DNA from: a virus
Reading direction: 5' to 3' (one strand)
Virus record (IMG/VR): IMGVR_UViG_3300012685_000001
Location: 1-64,000 of that record
DNA: 64,000 bases
Each line of letters begins with the position of its first letter. Position 1 is the stretch's first letter. Of the stretch, positions 4,455-55,384 are shown in pieces. Both the position numbers and the translations under genes were made by a program. The notes beneath the pieces are model-generated. The model searched no databases, was not told the origin of the DNA, and was given only the letters and a program-made list of their open reading frames with translations.

Positions 4455-6842
4455 TTAAGTTATAGGTTGAGCAAATTTAAGATTATAAGATTCACCTATA
4501 GGAGTTACTAAAGATAAAGCCCTATTAAGTCTAAGAAATTTATTATTATAATCCTTATAGAAATAAGAACGGGAAAGATTAGCTGTTCCACCTGATTCCC
4601 ATTTATAATCAGCAGAAGCAAAACCGCCGTCAAAGTAACCTTGATAATTAGTTGCTTCTTCCACCATCAGAGAATCTACCCAGAAAGAAAATGGAGCATG
4701 AGCTAAGTCAGGAAATTTCACATAGAAATACATGTAGTATTCAGTAAGCCCATTAGGAGGAACAGTATAAGTGGTCTGAATTCTCGTCCAGTTACCATCT
4801 ATATTTTCTGGATCGGTTATTTTTGTAGTGTTGGTACTTATAGCATCAAGACCAAGAACATTACTGTCCTTGAAGTCCATATAAACATCTGGACAGTTGG
4901 TTCCCTGTCTTATCCAAGCGGTAATAGTATAAGTATGTCCTATCTTCAATCCTTGGATAATAGGAATTCTTCCTGATGCTCCAAAATTAGCAGTAGTAGA
5001 AACTCCTACTCTTGCATTACTTCCTCCAGTAAAGGTTCCACTGAGAGCTGCAAAATCCACACGCATTGAACCTGCGGATTTGTATCCAACAGTATTGTCC
5101 CAAGCCATTGTTGCCGGATTAGGAGAACCTGATGTACCAATGGTTCCCACGAACCACTCAGACGTCCCTGTATTGAACCCTGAATTCAATACGTAGTTAA
5201 CTCTGTCAGCTTTCACGTTTACCTGAGCTGTTCTGGGATCAGAATAATCTGCTGGTGCTTCCGAGATAGAAAGAGAAGCCCCAGTAATAGTGTGATTACT
5301 CATATAGGTCGTCTCTACAATTCCGGAGGAAACATTTACAACAGGAACCACAGCAGCCCATACAGCGGTATTAGGAACAGACGTAGCCAGTACAGTTCCT
5401 GGTTGCCATACTCCGCCACCAGGATGTGTATTCTTATTTGTAATAGTTGCCTGGTTATATGTAGTAGCACTAAGAATTACATAATTGGCATCAAAGAATA
5501 CAAGACTGGCAAACCATGTTGTACTAGCTCTGGCAGTAGACAGGTAAACAACTCCAAAGAGACTTTCTGCAACCCCACCACTTTGCTGTACAGGTATTAA
5601 TGCTCCTGACTGAGGTAAAGGAAGATAAGCCAGAGTTCCATCCCCAATAGTTGCTGGAGAAGTATTGCTTATCATCTTTCCAGAATATTGACCTGTAAGA
5701 GGATGTTCAGTACTTCTCATTACACTGCTGAGTGTTCCTCTCCCCGGACTATAAGCACAAAGTGTGTCATAAATGCTGGCATCAAGAGAAAGACGATTAT
5801 TCAGGCCAGGAGTTTTTTCTATCTGAAAATTAGTACTCGCGGCGCTGACATTGCTGGCACTGAGACCAATACTATGTTCGAATGAAGCATATGCCGCAGG
5901 TTGCCAATAACTACCATCACGATAAGGAGCAGGATAAGTACTAGGATTAAATACTCTGGTCCATGTCGCCTGAGTAAGAGGATTAGCTGCTGATAAATTA
6001 GTAGCAACCCCAGGCTTCCATGAAGTAAACATTTGAGGATCAATAGTTCTCAAAGTTGTATAGACAAAATCTGTAAGGCCTCCATCAGGAATTCCCAGAG
6101 TTGCAGTAAAGGATGATTTAAGATTTCCTGTACCGTTTACTCGGCCTGACAGTTCATTTGGATTAGTAACAACGGCATTACCAGCTACAGCACTGATACC
6201 GTTCGCACTACCTGTAAGAATCAGACCGTTATTAGATGTATTGACACTGGAAATATAGGAACGAATACCTGAACTTTCCAGTCCTGTGAAACCTGAAAAG
6301 AATGTCACTGTTACAGAAGAAGCATCCCATAAATAAGGAACACTCCCCTGCTGGGTCCAGGTAATACCATTGGGTGAAGTATCGAAGAATAAAGTCACAC
6401 TGTTCTGATTACGGATACGCCAATAAGCATGGGCTGTTGGATCATATGTAGGCATCTGAGCAATAGTGACATTAGAATTGTCAGACACGTAGGCATTGAA
6501 CTGACCATTGGGTCCATAAGACATTTCTACATAGTTATGAAGATTGTCCTTAATAAGGATTCCAGTCTGTATCCCTGATGTAGATACAGGAGGAGTTATC
6601 TTCGCAAAGAAATAACTGTTCTCCAGATCATAAGAAGAAGCTCCTACATAACTGGGAGAATCTGACGCTTCTGCATAGGACATTAACTGAACAACATCAA
6701 AACCATAACTACCACTATTAGTAGTCCACTGAGGATTAAGAAGTCTGTCAGTTCCCCCAAATCCTCCATCACCGAAACCGAAGAAACCGAAGTCGTCTCT
6801 AAGAAAGACGTCACCTATTGAACTTGTTTTTGGAAGTGACAT
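4455..6842 (-). CDS. Tail fibre/baseplate-associated protein with carbohydrate-binding-like beta-sandwich domains
   Basis: 795 aa, S/T/G-rich; NYVLNSGF..W..G motif typical of CBM4/9-like jelly rolls; end of tail module. Confidence 0.65.
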   Translation of the reverse strand: MSLPKTSSIGDVFLRDDFGFFGFGDGGFGGTDRLLNPQWTTNSGSYGFDVVQLMSYAEASDSPSYVGASSYDLENSYFFAKITPPVSTSGIQTGILIKDNLHNYVEMSYGPNGQFNAYVSDNSNVTIAQMPTYDPTAHAYWRIRNQNSVTLFFDTSPNGITWTQQGSVPYLWDASSVTVTFFSGFTGLESSGIRSYISSVNTSNNGLILTGSANGISAVAGNAVVTNPNELSGRVNGTGNLKSSFTATLGIPDGGLTDFVYTTLRTIDPQMFTSWKPGVATNLSAANPLTQATWTRVFNPSTYPAPYRDGSYWQPAAYASFEHSIGLSASNVSAASTNFQIEKTPGLNNRLSLDASIYDTLCAYSPGRGTLSSVMRSTEHPLTGQYSGKMISNTSPATIGDGTLAYLPLPQSGALIPVQQSGGVAESLFGVVYLSTARASTTWFASLVFFDANYVILSATTYNQATITNKNTHPGGGVWQPGTVLATSVPNTAVWAAVVPVVNVSSGIVETTYMSNHTITGASLSISEAPADYSDPRTAQVNVKADRVNYVLNSGFNTGTSEWFVGTIGTSGSPNPATMAWDNTVGYKSAGSMRVDFAALSGTFTGGSNARVGVSTTANFGASGRIPIIQGLKIGHTYTITAWIRQGTNCPDVYMDFKDSNVLGLDAISTNTTKITDPENIDGNWTRIQTTYTVPPNGLTEYYMYFYVKFPDLAHAPFSFWVDSLMVEEATNYQGYFDGGFASADYKWESGGTANLSRSYFYKDYNNKFLRLNRALSLVTPIGESYNLKFAQPIT

Positions 6843-43423: not shown

Positions 43424-44479
43424 TTACTCTGCCTCAGGCTTTACCAGATCATACACCTTGGAAGTAATGTCCTTGTCATCAAGGATCATGAACATGAAAC
43501 CAGGGTACTGTGTGTCCTTCACTCTAATAGCAAAATCCTTTCTGGTCCAGCCGTCTGGGTACTTGAAACTATTCCACATATCCAATTTTACTAGCCAATA
43601 ATCGTGCTCAATATTATTTCGAGTAATCCTGAAATCAATGGATATCTCTGAATATGTATCCTTCAGCCAGTCATGCCACTCATCAGGAATGATGCTACAC
43701 ATCTGCTCAAGCGTCTTGCCTGCCTTTATGTTCTCCCAGACACGACGCTTCGTCAAACCGGTAACGATCTTGTGCAGAGCAATATAGTCAGCCTGCTTGA
43801 TCTTCAATCGGTACTCATTGTGCGGAAACGATACTACGTAGCCCTCAGCGTTCACCCTTTGCGGAGCCTCCAGAGCCTCTCTGAGCGTCTTATAGCGGAA
43901 GGTAGTAGTCCTGGGCCCCCGCCACTCTACAAGGCCCTCAGGAGGAAGCGTATAACCTTCCTCGATATCCCGGGCACCCAATAGAACCAGATCATCGAAA
44001 CCGTAGTTCAGAACGATACGGTTCTCTGGATAGATGATCTCAAACATATAAGTGAGATCAATACCAGCATCCTCTATGAACTTCTTATAACGGCTCTTCA
44101 GAAGATACGTGGCGTGAATTGCTTGATCCGAAGCAAAGGAACCTCGGGTAGCAATTCCCCAGTCTGCCTTGTACTCCCAGTAGATACCAAGAGAACCGTC
44201 CATCTTATCGGTAATAGTCGCAGGAGAATCAAGATACTGATTGTCCTCATCAGAATAGTTGTGGAACTTGTCGAATGGCCGCGCAATTACCTTGTCGTGA
44301 GAATTCACAATAAGACCACGGCACTGAGATGTTACATCATTCCACAGATTGTCATACTGAGCTTTCTCTGTATAGTTCAGGATAGAAAGATCATGGTAAG
44401 GATGAGTCTGCTCACGTACGTAACCTTCAGTCTTCAATTCCAAGTAGTCTTTGATCGAGAACAGATCATACAGATACAT
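43424..44479 (-). CDS. RNA ligase, T4 Rnl1 family
   Basis: CRGLI, ARPFDKFHN, KMDGSL adenylation motif, ATRGSF, FEIIYP.NRIV, EGYV, KIK..DY. Confidence 0.92.
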   Translation of the reverse strand: MYLYDLFSIKDYLELKTEGYVREQTHPYHDLSILNYTEKAQYDNLWNDVTSQCRGLIVNSHDKVIARPFDKFHNYSDEDNQYLDSPATITDKMDGSLGIYWEYKADWGIATRGSFASDQAIHATYLLKSRYKKFIEDAGIDLTYMFEIIYPENRIVLNYGFDDLVLLGARDIEEGYTLPPEGLVEWRGPRTTTFRYKTLREALEAPQRVNAEGYVVSFPHNEYRLKIKQADYIALHKIVTGLTKRRVWENIKAGKTLEQMCSIIPDEWHDWLKDTYSEISIDFRITRNNIEHDYWLVKLDMWNSFKYPDGWTRKDFAIRVKDTQYPGFMFMILDDKDITSKVYDLVKPEAE

Positions 44480-46397: not shown

Positions 46398-46403
46398 ATT
46401 GTA

Positions 46404-46580
46404 CTATTTACGTATTAGATTACTCTCAAGAAAACATTGAGTTTCTCCCTTGGAACGTCCAGAAAGAATCTTTACTTGCCACAGTCTGTAACCTTCATGC
46501 CAGCCAATAACTTCTCCATCACGATTACCATGAACATTAAGAATATTGACCTGTGTATTTCCTGTCCATTGCTTAACCAT
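46404..46580 (-). CDS. Small SH3-like beta-barrel protein
   Basis: GGAGG RBS before MVKQW; G.VIG..WQVKI..G pattern. Confidence 0.55.
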   Translation of the reverse strand: MVKQWTGNTQVNILNVHGNRDGEVIGWHEGYRLWQVKILSGRSKGETQCFLESNLIRK

Positions 46581-46591
46581 ATCTCCTCCAG

Positions 46592-46669
46592 AGCGGATAG
46601 TCGGATTCGAACCGCAACCCAACAGCTTTGCAGGCTGTTTCCATCACCATCAGGATTAGGGCTATCCGC
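46592..46669 (-). tRNA. tRNA-Cys(GCA), atypical fold
   Basis: ACAGC-CT-GCA-AA-GCTGT; U73; 8-bp acceptor GCGGATAG/CTATCCGC and short T stem. Confidence 0.75.
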
Positions 46670-46677
46670 ATATTCAG

Positions 46678-46866
46678 TTATCTCTTATCAAGAGACAAGT
46701 ACATTGCGGGGAACTTAATGCTCTGTCCGCCATCCTCATAAATAAGGATGTATTTCTTGGTGAAGAATCCCACACGTTGAATAACTGTTCCTCGACGGCC
46801 CGTAAAAGGTCCACGAGTAATAACTATAGGATCACCTATAGAGTATACAATTTCATGTTTACCCAT
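46678..46866 (-). CDS. KOW-motif small protein
   Basis: IGDPIVITRGPFTGRRGTVI. Confidence 0.75.
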   Translation of the reverse strand: MGKHEIVYSIGDPIVITRGPFTGRRGTVIQRVGFFTKKYILIYEDGGQSIKFPAMYLSLDKR

Positions 46867-46883
46867 TTTAATATCCTTAAGTT

Positions 46884-46997
46884 TTAACTAGTAGAGTAAG
46901 AACACTTAGTACACACCAATGTAGGTGACTTGCTCCCATCACCATGAACAATAGGGGCACCAGATACCAAATTATGGGGCTTTCCATCTACACACAT
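46884..46997 (-). CDS. 37-aa putative zinc-ribbon microprotein
   Basis: AAGGA RBS; MCVDGKPH...LVCTKCSYSTS. Confidence 0.5.
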   Translation of the reverse strand: MCVDGKPHNLVSGAPIVHGDGSKSPTLVCTKCSYSTS

Positions 46998-47027
46998 TTA
47001 TTTTCCTTAGTTCCTAATTATATAATT

Positions 47028-47109
47028 GTGGAGCACTGGAGATTCGAACTCCAGTCTCAGCCCGTCCGACGTGCGGCTTTAAAGGCTGATCGACACCAAT
47101 TTGTGCCCC
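47028..47109 (-). ncRNA. Minimal tmRNA-like RNA (tRNA-like domain only)
   Basis: GGGGCAC/GTGCTCC-A acceptor with G3:U70; stemless D-loop AAATTGGTGTCGA; CAGCC/GGCTG helix; GAC then T arm TGGAG-TTCGAAT-CTCCA. Confidence 0.75.
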
Positions 47110-47117
47110 ATAGGAAG

Positions 47118-47181
47118 TACAGAAGTATGCTGCCATTACACCATACCCGGGCTGACGGAATCGAACCGTTCCTCTTCTATA
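47118..47181 (-). ncRNA. Circularly permuted tRNA-like element
   Basis: TATAGAAG, T arm, short linker, D arm TGGTGTAATGGCAGCAT, CTTCTGTA; T arm precedes D arm and the ends pair over 8 bp. Confidence 0.6.
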
Positions 47182-47186
47182 CAACG

Positions 47187-47257
47187 TACCCCGTAACAGA
47201 ATCGAACTGATGTCTACGCTTTGTAAGAGCGCCGCTCTCCCATTGAGCTAACAGGGC
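47187..47257 (-). tRNA. tRNA-Val(TAC)
   Basis: GCGCT-CT-TAC-AA-AGCGT. Confidence 0.88.
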
Positions 47258-47280
47258 AGGTGCCCCGAAGGGCTATTGAA

Positions 47281-47460
47281 TTATTTTCCCGGTTTCTTAT
47301 GAAACTCATCGCGCTTAACATTGCGAATCGTAACATCTTCAGAACCAGGGGTGTCATTCAGCGTAAGAGTATACTTATCACGCCTAATCGCACGAACTGT
47401 AGCAGGTCTACCCTTGTAGTGACCTCTGTCAATAACGACAACATCACCAACAATAATCAT
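47281..47460 (-). CDS. 59-aa KOW-motif protein
   Basis: Below ORF-track cutoff; AGGAG RBS; MIIVGDVVVIDRGHYKGRPATVRAI. Confidence 0.7.
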   Translation of the reverse strand: MIIVGDVVVIDRGHYKGRPATVRAIRRDKYTLTLNDTPGSEDVTIRNVKRDEFHKKPGK

Positions 47461-47468
47461 TATAACTC

Positions 47469-47645
47469 CTACTGCTTCTCAAGCTCTCCAGAACGATAAG
47501 TACGCTCAGCGCCCTTACTGGCACCAACACTTGCCTCTGTTGCCTTAACGGCAACAAGATCACGAGCTGAATCAACAGCTATAACCTTACCCACAAGGCC
47601 GTCAACAGCGCCTACCTTATCGCCAACATGAAGCTTCTTACCCAT
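47469..47645 (-). CDS. 58-aa SH3/KOW-like protein
   Basis: AGGAGG RBS; MGKKLHVGDKVGAVDGLVGKVIAVD..LVAVK. Confidence 0.65.
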   Translation of the reverse strand: MGKKLHVGDKVGAVDGLVGKVIAVDSARDLVAVKATEASVGASKGAERTYRSGELEKQ

Positions 47646-47668
47646 ATCATATCCTCCTTATTTGGAAG

Positions 47669-47746
47669 CGCCTCAGACAGGATTCGAACCTGCATACTCC
47701 GTTACCCTTTTAATGACCGGTTAGAAGCCGGGGGGGATACTAAGGC
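47669..47746 (-). tRNA. D-arm-less tRNA-Arg(TCT)-like RNA
   Basis: Normal acceptor and T arm; CCGG-CT-TCT-AA-CCGG nested in TCC/GGA and CCC/GGG stems; no 5' D loop. Confidence 0.65.
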
Positions 47747-47771
47747 AAGTCCGCCCGAAGGCGGGGTAATA

Positions 47772-47924
47772 CTAAAGCTTCTTAACAGGCACTGCAATAA
47801 CCGTGTGCATTCCGGTACGGACATCCTGAACCTCTACACCCTTAACGATCTTGGGAGCAGTCTCAACAGTTCCCGAGCCAACACCAGGAACATTCACCTT
47901 CGCGCCGACCGACTTCTTACCCAT
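47772..47924 (-). CDS. 50-aa SH3-like protein
   Basis: AAGGAG RBS; MGKKSVGAKVNVPGVGSGTV. Confidence 0.55.
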   Translation of the reverse strand: MGKKSVGAKVNVPGVGSGTVETAPKIVKGVEVQDVRTGMHTVIAVPVKKL

Positions 47925-50277: not shown

Positions 50278-51858
50278 TTACTTTGCAACCCAAGGCCACG
50301 TCTGTGATATTCCAGCTTCTATCAAAGGAATCATCTGGAAACCCTTGTCAGTCAGTCCACCAAAGGTGTGACGCTTCTTGGAACCAGATTCACTCTGGCC
50401 AACAGCATACCCTCCGAGGTTCCAGGTGTAGACAGGAACATTAGCAGGTACAGAAGCAACAGGATCTCCACCGTAACCATTGTACTGCTCATCAGTGATG
50501 ATCACAATACGGTCATGGTTCTTGAAGTTGCCGTTGACTGCTCCACGGGTATCAGTTCCACCCATGCTCTTGAACTTACTCAGCATAGGAAGAACAGACT
50601 GACCCTTACGGAAAGAAACTGTTTCGAAAGAAGGTCCACGCCATGCGTCACCAAACTGTACCAGATCTGCATTTTCAGCACGAAGTGCTAGTGCTGAACC
50701 AAAGATAGCAGCCGTGTCAGCTCTGTCAAGTCCCTGAGTTCCTCCGTTAGAAGTAAACATGGAACCAGAACGGTCAACCAGAACCAGTGTACGTCCCTTC
50801 AGAGAAGGCACATTGCTCAGAGAAGCCTCAAGGGCAGTCTCAAGCGCCGCAGCGATCTGAAGAGTATCCTTGTTGGCCTGGTAAGCAGCAAGGAATCGGA
50901 AAGGGAACTGCTTACTCTTGGCAACCTGCGCAGGATCAGCAAGTTTTGCAAGAACATTCTGCATCACTGGGACACTAATTCGGGCATCCTGGAAGTTCCG
51001 CAAGTTTCGAAGAAGTGCCATATATCCCATGGAAGGAATAACAGCTTCCCAGGCAACAGCATCCATAGGACCCTGAAGCCATCCGGAAAGAGCTTCCCAA
51101 GTCATTCCAGCATTCTTCATACGAGTAGCGTCCAGAAGGCCAGTAACTATTGCGCCCTTACGGTTTTCTACTGGAATACGCATTATATACTTTCGCGTAT
51201 TAATCATCTCTAGTACGCCTGGAACAATCTCTACATTTCCATAACGACTAGCAAGAGCGTACTTGAACAACTGCTCCTGAATCTCGTTATCAGGCTTAGG
51301 GTGAGTCAACTGAAGAACATCCGCGAAACGGTATCCCACAGAAGTATCGTACTTAAGAAGACTGTACTCGTTATACAACTTCTTGGCACCATCCGCAACA
51401 CCCTTCTTAAGGAAGGATGGGAAGTTCTTCCCGTACTTGGACTCGTAATAAGCCAGCACCTCACCAGGCTCATCAGCACGAGCCATAGAAGCGGCTACAA
51501 GGCCCCTAGGAGTCCCATTCAGCTGTCCTGAGTCCCAAAGGGCCTTGGCACCTTCTACACCCGCTACAATCGCCGCTGAACGCATGAAGGCAGAGTTACG
51601 AAGCCAATAGACGAAACCGGCAAACCAGAATGAATTAGTTACCGCTACTTCGGCACACAACTTGGAGAAACGGTCATCACGGCTCTTGGCGTTCTCATAG
51701 AACGTATCCTGACCGACAAAGTTGGAAACTGCTAGCAAGAACAACTCAGATTGCTTAGTGCGCACAAAACCTGCCTTGAAGTCAGCATTCAGTGCTGCCT
51801 GAGTAGTCTTGACAGGAGAAGTAGTTCCTGTCTTCTTTACCTGATTGAACTTGCCCAT
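50278..51858 (-). CDS. rsr: Ro60 / TROVE-domain RNA-binding protein with C-terminal vWA domain
   Basis: ELFLLAV..TFYE, RADEP, DVLQL.HPKP, TWEAL, MGYMALLRNLRN, SKQFPFRF, MIDAS DRSGSM, GGT, IITDEQ. Confidence 0.93.
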   Translation of the reverse strand: MGKFNQVKKTGTTSPVKTTQAALNADFKAGFVRTKQSELFLLAVSNFVGQDTFYENAKSRDDRFSKLCAEVAVTNSFWFAGFVYWLRNSAFMRSAAIVAGVEGAKALWDSGQLNGTPRGLVAASMARADEPGEVLAYYESKYGKNFPSFLKKGVADGAKKLYNEYSLLKYDTSVGYRFADVLQLTHPKPDNEIQEQLFKYALASRYGNVEIVPGVLEMINTRKYIMRIPVENRKGAIVTGLLDATRMKNAGMTWEALSGWLQGPMDAVAWEAVIPSMGYMALLRNLRNFQDARISVPVMQNVLAKLADPAQVAKSKQFPFRFLAAYQANKDTLQIAAALETALEASLSNVPSLKGRTLVLVDRSGSMFTSNGGTQGLDRADTAAIFGSALALRAENADLVQFGDAWRGPSFETVSFRKGQSVLPMLSKFKSMGGTDTRGAVNGNFKNHDRIVIITDEQYNGYGGDPVASVPANVPVYTWNLGGYAVGQSESGSKKRHTFGGLTDKGFQMIPLIEAGISQTWPWVAK

Positions 51859-51860
51859 TC

Positions 51861-52064
51861 CTATTCTCCTATTTTCTCGAAGCGCTGCATACGCTTGCCA
51901 TCACGTTCTACATACTCAACAAACTCATCCAAGGGACGCACTGAAATAATACCTTCTCCGTATTGCGCTGCATAAACTACCACATCTCTCCAGGAGCCAC
52001 TTTCCTTTGCAAGGAACAGGACTCTATAAAGATTTCCCTTAAAATGTCTGTACAGCCCATGCAT
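51861..52064 (-). CDS. DUF1653-like SH3-fold protein
   Basis: G.YRHFKG..Y.V, VVVY, VRP..EF, RF. Confidence 0.85.
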   Translation of the reverse strand: MHGLYRHFKGNLYRVLFLAKESGSWRDVVVYAAQYGEGIISVRPLDEFVEYVERDGKRMQRFEKIGE

Positions 52065-52149
52065 TGTACCTCCTATTTGTAGTACGTTATAAAGACAAAA
52101 ATAATCCCCTAAAGTGCACTTTCGTGGACCTAGGGGAGGATTAAAAATA

Positions 52150-52258
52150 AGTTCCTAGAAAAAACGGTGTGAGGTATATAGGCGCCGTGCCTTAAGGGGA
52201 CTCGAACCCCATGGGTTTCATATCAATTGAAGTAACCCCGTACCTTCGCATCGGAACT
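52150..52258 (-). ncRNA. Y RNA-like gene C (Ro-binding stem plus isolated T arm)
   Basis: Shared CGATGCGAAG..GTTACTTCA and TTTCTAG terminal stem; internal GGGG-TTCGAGT-CCCC. Confidence 0.75.
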
Positions 52259-52266
52259 AAAAAATA

Positions 52267-52341
52267 TACCCTAGAAAAAACGCCTACAGTGCTTTTTGAT
52301 TACCAATTAATTTGAAGTAACTGTTGGCTACGCATCGGGTA
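52267..52341 (-). ncRNA. Y RNA-like gene B (Ro-binding stem only)
   Basis: CGATGCGTAG..GTTACTTCA and TTTCTAG stem closed by short AU-rich loop. Confidence 0.72.
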
Positions 52342-52359
52342 AAGCTTATTAAATTTTAA

Positions 52360-52500
52360 GACAACTAGAAAGAATCGATAAAAGTGCTTTATATACCGCT
52401 GCTCTGCCTCTGAGCTATCAACCATAGAATTGGCTGAGAAGGATTCGAACCTTCGTCACGCGGTTCCCTGTGAAGTAACTCTTATCTTCGCATCGCTGTC
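52360..52500 (-). ncRNA. yrlA: YrlA-type Y RNA A (Ro-binding stem plus full permuted tRNA-like domain)
   Basis: Terminal stem; ACCGC..T arm GAAGG-TTCGAAT-CCTTC; closed acceptor TCAGCCA/TGGTTGA; D arm TAGCTCAGAGGCAGAGC; GCGGT; next to Ro60. Confidence 0.85.
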
Positions 52501-55313: not shown

Positions 55314-55384
55314 CTCCCCGACCTAGATTCGAACTAAGTCTAACGGTGTCAGAGACCGTTGTGCTGCCGTTACACCATCGGGGA
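55314..55384 (-). tRNA. tRNA-Gln(CTG)
   Basis: ACGGT-CT-CTG-AC-ACCGT; U1-A72. Confidence 0.9.

Follow-up and report, generated by a model that had tools for sequence, protein, structure and literature searches.

A 66-nt element in the tRNA array of a soil phage of Streptomyces type appears, judging from its sequence, to encode a small RNA that stands alone and takes the form of a circularly permuted tRNA core; the RNA would measure about 66 nt, or as much as about 77 nt if its spacers were left untrimmed. The element lies at 47182-47117 on the minus strand of the window, i.e. the whole 64,000-nt stretch analyzed here, which covers the initial 64 kb of an IMG/VR record of 113,467 bp with direct terminal repeats (IMGVR_UViG_3300012685_000001). 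The nearest named relative of this phage is the Streptomyces phage BRock (Borockvirus, 112.5 kb). ARAGORN predicts a minus-strand array of 28 tRNA genes at 44.9-56.1 kb, and the element is situated inside it, between tRNA-Val(UAC) and a reduced transfer-messenger RNA (mini-tmRNA). That it represents a real and conserved tRNA-core RNA incapable of being charged is, in our assessment, highly probable. The longer chain of proposals, in which this RNA is released from the array, forms a homodimer through a palindrome and acts in trans as a mimic of the tRNA body, stands in our estimate at an even balance.

A tRNA core opened at the anticodon stem

In the permuted order of the element (Table 1) the 5' strand of the closing stem stands where a tRNA has the 3' strand of its anticodon stem. 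An earlier sequence-only reading of this DNA had described closing strands UAUAGAAG and CUUCUGUA, a T arm, a short linker and a D arm, and all of these parts were recovered at the place it gave, on the minus strand, with the T arm at 47169-47155 and the D arm at 47141-47127; the closing stem was found to span 9 bp, i.e. one G-C pair beyond that description, which places the limits at 47182-47117. The same reading had proposed a circular permutation of the YrlA type without a Ro60-binding stem, anticodon loop or CCA end. This is borne out, as the order of the parts, apart from the missing acceptor-like hairpin, equals that in the structure line of the YrlA model, neither an anticodon loop nor a CCA end is present, and there is no room for a Ro60-binding stem, since tRNA-Val ends 4 nt before the element and the mini-tmRNA begins 7 nt after it. 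Its description of the element as an unchargeable elbow mimic likewise holds and extends to decoding: lacking an anticodon loop, an acceptor stem and a CCA end, the RNA can neither be charged nor take part in decoding.

The nucleotides of the tRNA elbow are retained in the form of U8, A14, G18G19, U54-U55-C56 and A58. When compared with canonical tRNA (RF00005), the element has a T arm with the UUCRANY loop, a D arm with A14 and G18G19, and U8, all of which are invariant among the members. It has no 7-bp acceptor stem, discriminator or CCA, only the 11-nt linker being present between the T arm and U8, and the anticodon stem is open, with the ends of the RNA lying where a 7-nt loop would be. 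No tRNA was called at the element by ARAGORN and no family by Rfam, even when the scan was relaxed to E 10, and it was met neither in the RNA catalogues searched, including Rfam, nor in the searched literature.

A covariance model (R1) prepared from five relatives, with the window excluded, recovered the window once (47117-47182; 46.9 bits, E 1.8e-10 in 0.9 Mb), and this is the single match in the whole 113-kb genome of the phage. BRock scores 46.4 bits with this model, L182 70 bits, L173 63 bits, and L089, L073 and L027 26-30 bits. In total at least 12 distinct versions, 62-66 nt long throughout, were found in at least three genomic contexts in BRock, eight named BE-cluster Streptomyces phages and uncultured phages. 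BRock carries the element, unannotated, at the same place with a compensated closing stem (UACAGAGG/CCUCUGUA), and a third phage, L005, reached through a search with neighboring proteins, has CAGAUAAGA/UCUUACUG. Further relatives were found by pattern pre-filtering: a first exact pattern gave BRock alone in IMG/VR, and the relaxed patterns then used on IMG/VR and metagenomes added the BE-cluster Streptomyces phages L013, L015, L020, L025 and L030, the fragment L027 (47 kb), the complete phages L089/L143 (46 kb) and L073 (155 kb), and the metagenome contigs L173 and L182. In the eight named BE-cluster phages the element lies between tRNA-Phe and tRNA-Gly, and in BLAST comparisons these two tRNAs are the only annotation under the match. 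Megablast against named phages gave no match, and BRock was recovered solely by blastn with short words; no named relative matched for L089, and for L073, among the matches listed, only its tRNA-Lys was covered. A pattern scan of bacterial and archaeal genomes, one for each of 185,579 species, yielded no convincing member (best match E 0.02). Weaker and more distant matches to R1 occur in L032, a 140-kb phage, and in L036.

The helices are supported by covariation. In 10 distinct sequences 92.9% of the cells pair, as against 74.3% in shuffles, none of the 500 shuffles reaching as high a value, and sliding the partners by 1-3 columns lowers the pairing to 34-58%. All eight modeled pairs of the closing stem have changed on both sides in the 10-sequence model alignment, the outer pair of the T stem occurs as AU, CG, GC, GU and UA across the members, and RNAalifold independently predicts the same three helices. 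As MAFFT mis-registered the 3' strand when run on all ten sequences, the alignment used was one based on the covariance model; such an alignment is fitted to the model and favors it, but the compensatory changes, which the sequence-only reading had proposed looking for in relatives, can also be read in the raw unaligned sequences.

The D arm is one base different from that of the phage's own tRNA-Gln(CUG) (55362-55376), which also possesses the UG-GUGU junction; hence, by sequence likeness, a tRNA origin of the element is likely. This likeness of the D arm and U8-G9 junction is also what might be expected of a decaying relic, namely the functionless scar of a deletion between two tandem tRNA genes, where fusion of two complementary acceptor strands at their inner ends would even yield a palindrome from the outset. 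Yet at least 12 versions in at least three contexts preserve the length, the tertiary bases and, by compensation, all the helices, several rounds of rewriting have left the palindrome a palindrome, and no relative has two intact tRNAs at this spot, the arrangement which the sequence-only reading had named as the sign of such a scar. A relic is hence the least credible of the explanations considered here and very improbable.

The palindromic linker

What separates the T arm from U8 had been described in the sequence-only reading as a 10-nt remnant of the acceptor, but it does not behave as a passive remnant: it holds a selected palindrome, the letters of which have been rewritten while the self-complementarity was kept. 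The palindrome is perfect, 6-8 nt long and located in the same aligned columns, taking the forms CCCGGG, CGCGCG, ACGCGCGT, ACCUAGGU and CCACGUGG. CCCGGG is found in the window, BRock, L013, L020 and L182, CGCGCG in L015, ACGCGCGU in L005 and L173, ACCUAGGU in L025 and L030, and CCACGUGG in L027, while L073 has UGCGCA shifted by one position. Close relatives are separated by mirrored double substitutions (L013 versus L015 and L020 versus L025), and a palindrome of at least 6 nt is present in 11 of the 12 distinct linkers, as against about 12% of random 13-mers.

Without a loop a palindrome is unable to fold back on itself, and where the flanks are U/U, as in five members, no more than one pair could close around a tetraloop. 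The most plausible cause of selection on the inner pairs is therefore that two molecules pair with each other. The palindrome, standing in place of the acceptor stem, would thereby join two RNAs into a homodimer, an outcome to which we assign slightly less than even chances. In cofolding, homodimers are 7.5-13 kcal/mol more stable, and the predicted dimer uses the palindrome in the window, BRock, L013, L020 and L027.

Several other uses of these nucleotides were considered and rejected. CCCGGG occurs in 2 copies in the window, against about 4 expected from shuffles, and the sole other copy in the 64 kb sits within the open reading frame (ORF) of an RNA ligase, which makes it a poor candidate for a partner in trans. 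Single-sequence minimum-energy folds pair the variable loop with the palindrome, and when only the window sequence is folded they offer a long GGUAUG/CAUACU hairpin in the D region; neither is conserved across the members, the conserved structure of the D region being a 4-bp GUGU/GCAY stem. A 7-nt match between CAGCCCG of the linker and CGGGCUG of the mini-tmRNA was dropped because BRock does not keep it. A site acting at the DNA level, attP-like or otherwise, was rejected by reasoning alone, because the sequence of the palindrome differs between relatives.

Table 1. Parts of the permuted tRNA core, its immediate neighbors and the phage RNA ligase gene (window coordinates)
Feature	Coordinates	Strand	Basis and remarks
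Upstream neighbor, tRNA-Val(UAC)	47187..47257	-	ARAGORN; Rfam tRNA 62.6 bits; ends at discriminator A47187, no encoded CCA
5' spacer CGUU, tRNA-Val to element	47183..47186	-	sequence; 4-10 nt in relatives
Closing stem, 5' strand GUAUAGAAG	47174..47182	-	pairs with 47125-47117; 8/8 modeled pairs covary
Variable-loop analogue AGGA	47170..47173	-	4-5 nt in every member
T arm ACGG-UUCGAUU-CCGU	47155..47169	-	GGUUCGAYUCC invariant in all members
Linker CAG-CCCGGG-UA, 11 nt, replacing the acceptor stem	47144..47154	-	palindrome CCCGGG at 47151-47146
U8-G9 analogue UG	47142..47143	-	U invariant, following base always a purine
D arm GUGU-AAUGGCA-GCAU with A14, G18G19	47127..47141	-	A14 and GG invariant; stem varies only from G.U to G-C
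A26 analogue (47126) and closing stem, 3' strand CUUCUGUAC (47125-47117)	47117..47126	-	sequence; covariation; RNAalifold
3' spacer UUCCUAU	47110..47116	-	5-8 nt in relatives with a tRNA-like gene just downstream
Downstream neighbor, tag-less mini-tmRNA (tRNA-like domain only, G3:U70)	47029..47109	-	sequence and fold; starts GGGGCAC from 47109
T4 Rnl1-family RNA ligase	43424..44479	-	PF09511, 51.3 bits; directly downstream of the tRNA array

Proposed release from the array and possible roles

The element follows the upstream tRNA gene at a distance of 4-5 nt in most members (10 nt in L073) and precedes the next tRNA-like gene by 5-8 nt in the window, BRock, L005, L173, the BE-cluster phages and L027. 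The position next to the mini-tmRNA, which the sequence-only reading had emphasized, stands for the window, BRock, L005 and L173, all of which have tRNA-Val on the other side, but it is specific to that lineage: the neighbors are tRNA-Phe and tRNA-Gly in the BE-cluster phages and tRNA-Ile and tRNA-Val in L027. In L073 a tRNA with a UCA anticodon lies about 10 nt upstream and tRNA-Lys 86 nt downstream, and the copy in L089, a complete phage of 46 kb, has no tRNA closer than 700 nt, a situation which favors action in trans. Because the neighbors differ between lineages, the mini-tmRNA is best seen as an incidental one. Nor do the two appear to form a single two-piece or permuted tmRNA, since the mini-tmRNA has both of its own acceptor strands and the BE-cluster phages, L027, L073 and L089 carry the element without a mini-tmRNA.

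The mini-tmRNA itself has a tmRNA-like 5' sequence (UGGNNUCGA). It is conserved, its acceptor stem being compensated, in BRock, L005 and NootNoot, a BE1 phage; its counterparts at L001 ~1425-1497 and L004 ~1817-1893 are unannotated in BRock and NootNoot. Where NootNoot passes from tRNA-Val to the mini-tmRNA it has an insert of another kind, about 110 nt long (L004 1894-2004, -), closed by GGAAGG/CCUUCC and containing a T-arm-like hairpin, CCGG-GCACGAAU-CCGG, with no match to R1. Elsewhere in the array of the window two irregular tRNAs lie at 46596-46666 and 47669-47746 (-): the first resembles a Cys(GCA) tRNA whose T stem is imperfect and whose D region is long, its BRock counterpart being annotated as tRNA-Cys on the opposite strand, and the other is an Arg(UCU) tRNA that lacks a normal D arm and scores 28.3 bits, slightly short of the Rfam threshold. 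Two small ORFs at 46678-46866 and 47281-47460 (-; 62 and 59 aa) have weak KOW-motif matches below the Pfam threshold, and a third at 47469-47645 (-; 58 aa) has a weak YajC match only. On the viral contig L012 (IMGVR_UViG_3300035661_000143; 41 kb) several tRNA genes are accompanied by a bacterial class A RNase P RNA at 5521-5849 (-; 146.8 bits, above the Rfam threshold).

No promoter or terminator belonging to the element was seen in the window, and it would be co-transcribed with the minus-strand tRNA array. In tRNA maturation an upstream tRNA is processed at its 3' end and a downstream tRNA is cleaved by RNase P. The enzymes maturing the neighbors could in this way excise the element, through 3' processing of tRNA-Val, 4 nt ahead of it, and the RNase P cut at the mini-tmRNA, which starts 7 nt beyond it, so that 5' processing of the mini-tmRNA would fix the 3' end of the element. 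Accordingly disposed spacers make this route a well-motivated one, and we infer that release proceeds through processing of the neighbors.

The tight wedging of the element between two tRNA-type genes in almost all cases could alternatively mean that it works in cis, as a structural spacer of the tRNA operon which prevents mispairing of the neighbors or docks RNase P or RNase Z via the elbow and is functionless once released. For such a purpose a hairpin would suffice, and the invariant U8, A14, G18G19 and T-loop bases, as well as the covarying palindrome, would be needless; moreover, the neighbors change among lineages while the element stays the same, and the copy in L089 is far from any tRNA. 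A role confined to the precursor is accordingly quite improbable.

A comparably small probability attaches to the proposal that the excised RNA is circularized, its processed ends being held by the closing stem in the manner of a nicked anticodon loop and sealed by the phage ligase into an exonuclease-proof circular tRNA core. The phage encodes an Rnl1-family ligase (Table 1), and Rnl1 was found in 8 of the 11 checked records. RNase P and RNase Z chemistry leaves a 5' phosphate and a 3' OH, a nicked anticodon loop is the preferred substrate of T4 Rnl1-type ligases, and tails on a 9-bp stem fit geometrically. Nevertheless, the proposal is purely inferential, tails of 4 and 7 nt would give an 11-nt loop rather than one of 7 nt, L089 and L073 have no Rnl1, and repair of the at least 28 real tRNAs of the phage explains the ligase sufficiently.

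Once free, the tRNA-core RNA would act in trans as an inert mimic of the tRNA body, occupying or recruiting a factor that recognizes the elbow or core without being consumed as its substrate. Candidates for such a factor include a host defense enzyme that targets tRNAs and an enzyme that processes or modifies tRNAs. A decoy role of this kind is a tentative proposal, to which we give somewhat less weight than to the dimer. More doubtful still, though worth stating, is the possibility that the element typifies an undescribed class of phage RNAs: a core without handle, acceptor or anticodon, excised by RNase P and RNase Z, forming a two-elbow homodimer through a palindrome like that of retroviral dimerization initiation sites, possibly sealed into a circle by Rnl1, and presenting a bivalent decoy to a dimeric, elbow-gripping host factor. 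A tRNA-directed anti-phage nuclease or nucleotidyltransferase would be an example of the target of such a bivalent decoy, and this possibility as a whole is to be taken as rather unlikely.

Against the sequence of release, dimerization and mimicry in trans there are several considerations. The ends of the RNA, its stability and the dimer are predictions from the sequence. The gain in stability predicted by cofolding indicates only that a dimer would be feasible; any palindrome would give the same gain, and it does not amount to independent evidence. The linker of L089 has no palindrome, forming instead a true 3-bp mini-hairpin (GGC-ACUGC-GCC), and the linker is A-rich in L032 and L036, both of them weaker matches; dimerization is thus not essential to the whole class. 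As the members come from related phages they are not independent, and the counts given above overstate the number of evolutionary events. Finally, a Trbp111-type tRNA-binding domain and a CCA-adding enzyme are both absent from the phage genome.

The role of phage tRNA arrays against tRNA-cleaving defenses of the host is an active question, and here RNAs consisting only of a tRNA body are conserved beside real tRNAs. At 66 nt and with three helices, no handle and no working end, the element is the smallest such design found here, which makes it a clean tool for questions about elbow recognition, and the covarying palindrome offers a sharp and cheap handle on a two-elbow RNA. Experiments are feasible, as the element is present but unannotated in cultured and freely available Streptomyces phages such as BRock, StarPlatinum, LukeCage, Yaboi, Wofford and others.

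Related tRNA-body RNAs and comparison with known systems

R1 additionally recovers a 51-nt subfamily of permuted elbows in the tRNA arrays of uncultured freshwater-type phages (L193:2924-2974, L171:885-935, L155:2368-2418, L212:166-220, L163:674-733, L128 and others). These share with the element of the window the order of parts, a GUGU-AAUGGNA-GCAC D arm, the T loop and a covarying closing stem, but they have a closing stem of 5 bp (ACNNN/NNNGU) and a linker of 4 nt, and a palindrome is not required. In L193-type copies an outer helix, ACUUU/AAAGU, read by eye, forms a handle, whereas the window element is handle-less. In Karimac-type BE phages the slot between tRNA-Phe and tRNA-Gly holds a 77-nt tRNA-like cloverleaf in normal order with an anticodon loop of 4-6 nt (L235:185-261 in Karimac, L236:188-265 in SaltySpitoon and L234:183-259 in Enygma, annotated as tRNA-OTHER in Enygma only). 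This is the exact slot of the permuted element in StarPlatinum-type phages, and since it carries either of two permutation isomers of a non-decoding body, the tRNA body itself appears to be what matters. A further match to R1 on the metagenome contig L136 (23.4 bits, E 0.0018) has the permuted-elbow layout with a 4-bp, GNRA-capped acceptor mini-hairpin; the contig bears a large tRNA array, a GOLLD RNA at 2365-2829 (201.8 bits) and a permuted tmRNA at 67-492 (119.4 bits), both on the minus strand.

Among known RNAs the closest in topology is the tRNA-like domain of YrlA, a Y RNA of bacteria and mycobacteriophages; this domain is a close mimic of tRNA (Chen et al. 2014, PMC4201824; Wang et al. 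2018, bioRxiv 10.1101/312249). In both cases the ends lie at the position of the anticodon stem, the order is stem, variable loop, T arm, acceptor analogue, U8-N9, D arm and stem, the tertiary bases of tRNA are kept, there is neither a free CCA nor an anticodon, and the host phage of the element encodes Ro60. The element nevertheless fails membership in the YrlA family. The Rfam model (RF02553) gave no match to it at E up to 10 over 46400-47900; it has no Ro60-binding helix or motif; the acceptor-like hairpin of the model is replaced by a loop-less palindrome of 6-8 nt; it is located away from the Ro60 gene; it also occurs in phages without Ro60; and it would come from processing of the tRNA array rather than be made as a Y RNA.

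These likenesses raise the alternative that the element is an extra effector module of the Ro60/Y-RNA system, i.e. a YrlA-type tRNA-like domain minus the Ro-binding handle, which works with Ro60 directly or via a handle-only Y RNA. The phage has a TROVE/Ro60 gene (a 540-aa frame) with three tandem Y-RNA-like units just upstream of it (region 50278-52500, -), 3-5 kb from the element; the TROVE Pfam match itself, at 50875-51123, is about 3.7 kb away and the gene is not adjacent. Ro60 is found in 8 of the 11 checked records that carry the element or a weaker match, one of which, the 140-kb phage L032, has its weaker match about 700 nt upstream of the Ro60 gene. The order of the parts is that of the YrlA domain, and the acceptor-stem analogue of YrlA is itself variable in length (Wang et al. 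2018, bioRxiv 10.1101/312249). Against this, besides the silence of the YrlA model, R1 does not match the YrlA domain of the same phage, the 5' Ro-binding motif of its Y RNAs (CGAUGCG..GUUACUUCA) is absent from the element and would find no room there, and the complete genomes L089 and L073 have the element and no TROVE gene. The association with Ro60 is also not specific, because the co-occurring phages are related and Rnl1 shows an identical pattern. The sequence-only reading had further suggested that the element complements a stem-only Y RNA at 52267, a link which is not sustained: no complementarity is seen by eye, CCCGGG is missing from the Y-RNA region, and the two complete genomes just mentioned lack Ro60. 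A module of the Ro60 system is on balance unlikely, though less so than a spacer or a circle. The element also demonstrates the existence of YrlA-type permuted tRNA bodies beyond the Ro60/Y-RNA context. As for the Y-RNA-like units themselves, the three share the 5' sequence CGAUGCG..GUUACUUCA and a 3' sequence UUUUUCUAG, and the first contains a YrlA-type tRNA-like domain at 52462-52397 (-) that scores 31.4 bits, below the Rfam threshold of 69 bits. In L032 the Ro60 and Rnl1 genes are adjacent.

The conserved tRNA-core RNA also invites comparison with three systems unrelated to Ro60. In retroviral dimerization initiation sites, of which that of human immunodeficiency virus type 1 (HIV-1) has the palindromes GCGCGC or GUGCAC, a 6-nt, GC-rich self-complementary word likewise lies unpaired between helices and varies in its letters while remaining a palindrome; the analogy is one of form, as the molecule and its biology are unrelated and dimerization of the element is a proposal. 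Circularly permuted tRNA genes of Cyanidioschyzon merolae were reportedly described by Soma and colleagues in 2007. Such genes in this and other algae, with the 3' half upstream of the 5' half, give rise, once circularized and processed, to complete and chargeable tRNAs (reviewed in PMC3978253). The half with the T arm is encoded upstream of that with the D arm in the element too, but it does not encode an anticodon loop or an acceptor end and no functional tRNA is possible.

In genomic setting a parallel is offered by small non-decoding RNAs encoded among the tRNA genes of other phages, namely species 1 and 2 of T4 (rnaC and rnaD) and RNA1 and RNA2 of T5, presumably matured by tRNA enzymes and, to our knowledge, with functions that have been unresolved for decades. 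The element is likewise located inside a phage tRNA cluster, the 28-gene array on the minus strand. The T4 and T5 RNAs are longer, have the normal order and possess an acceptor-like end, whereas the 66 nt of the element are in permuted order and include no acceptor.

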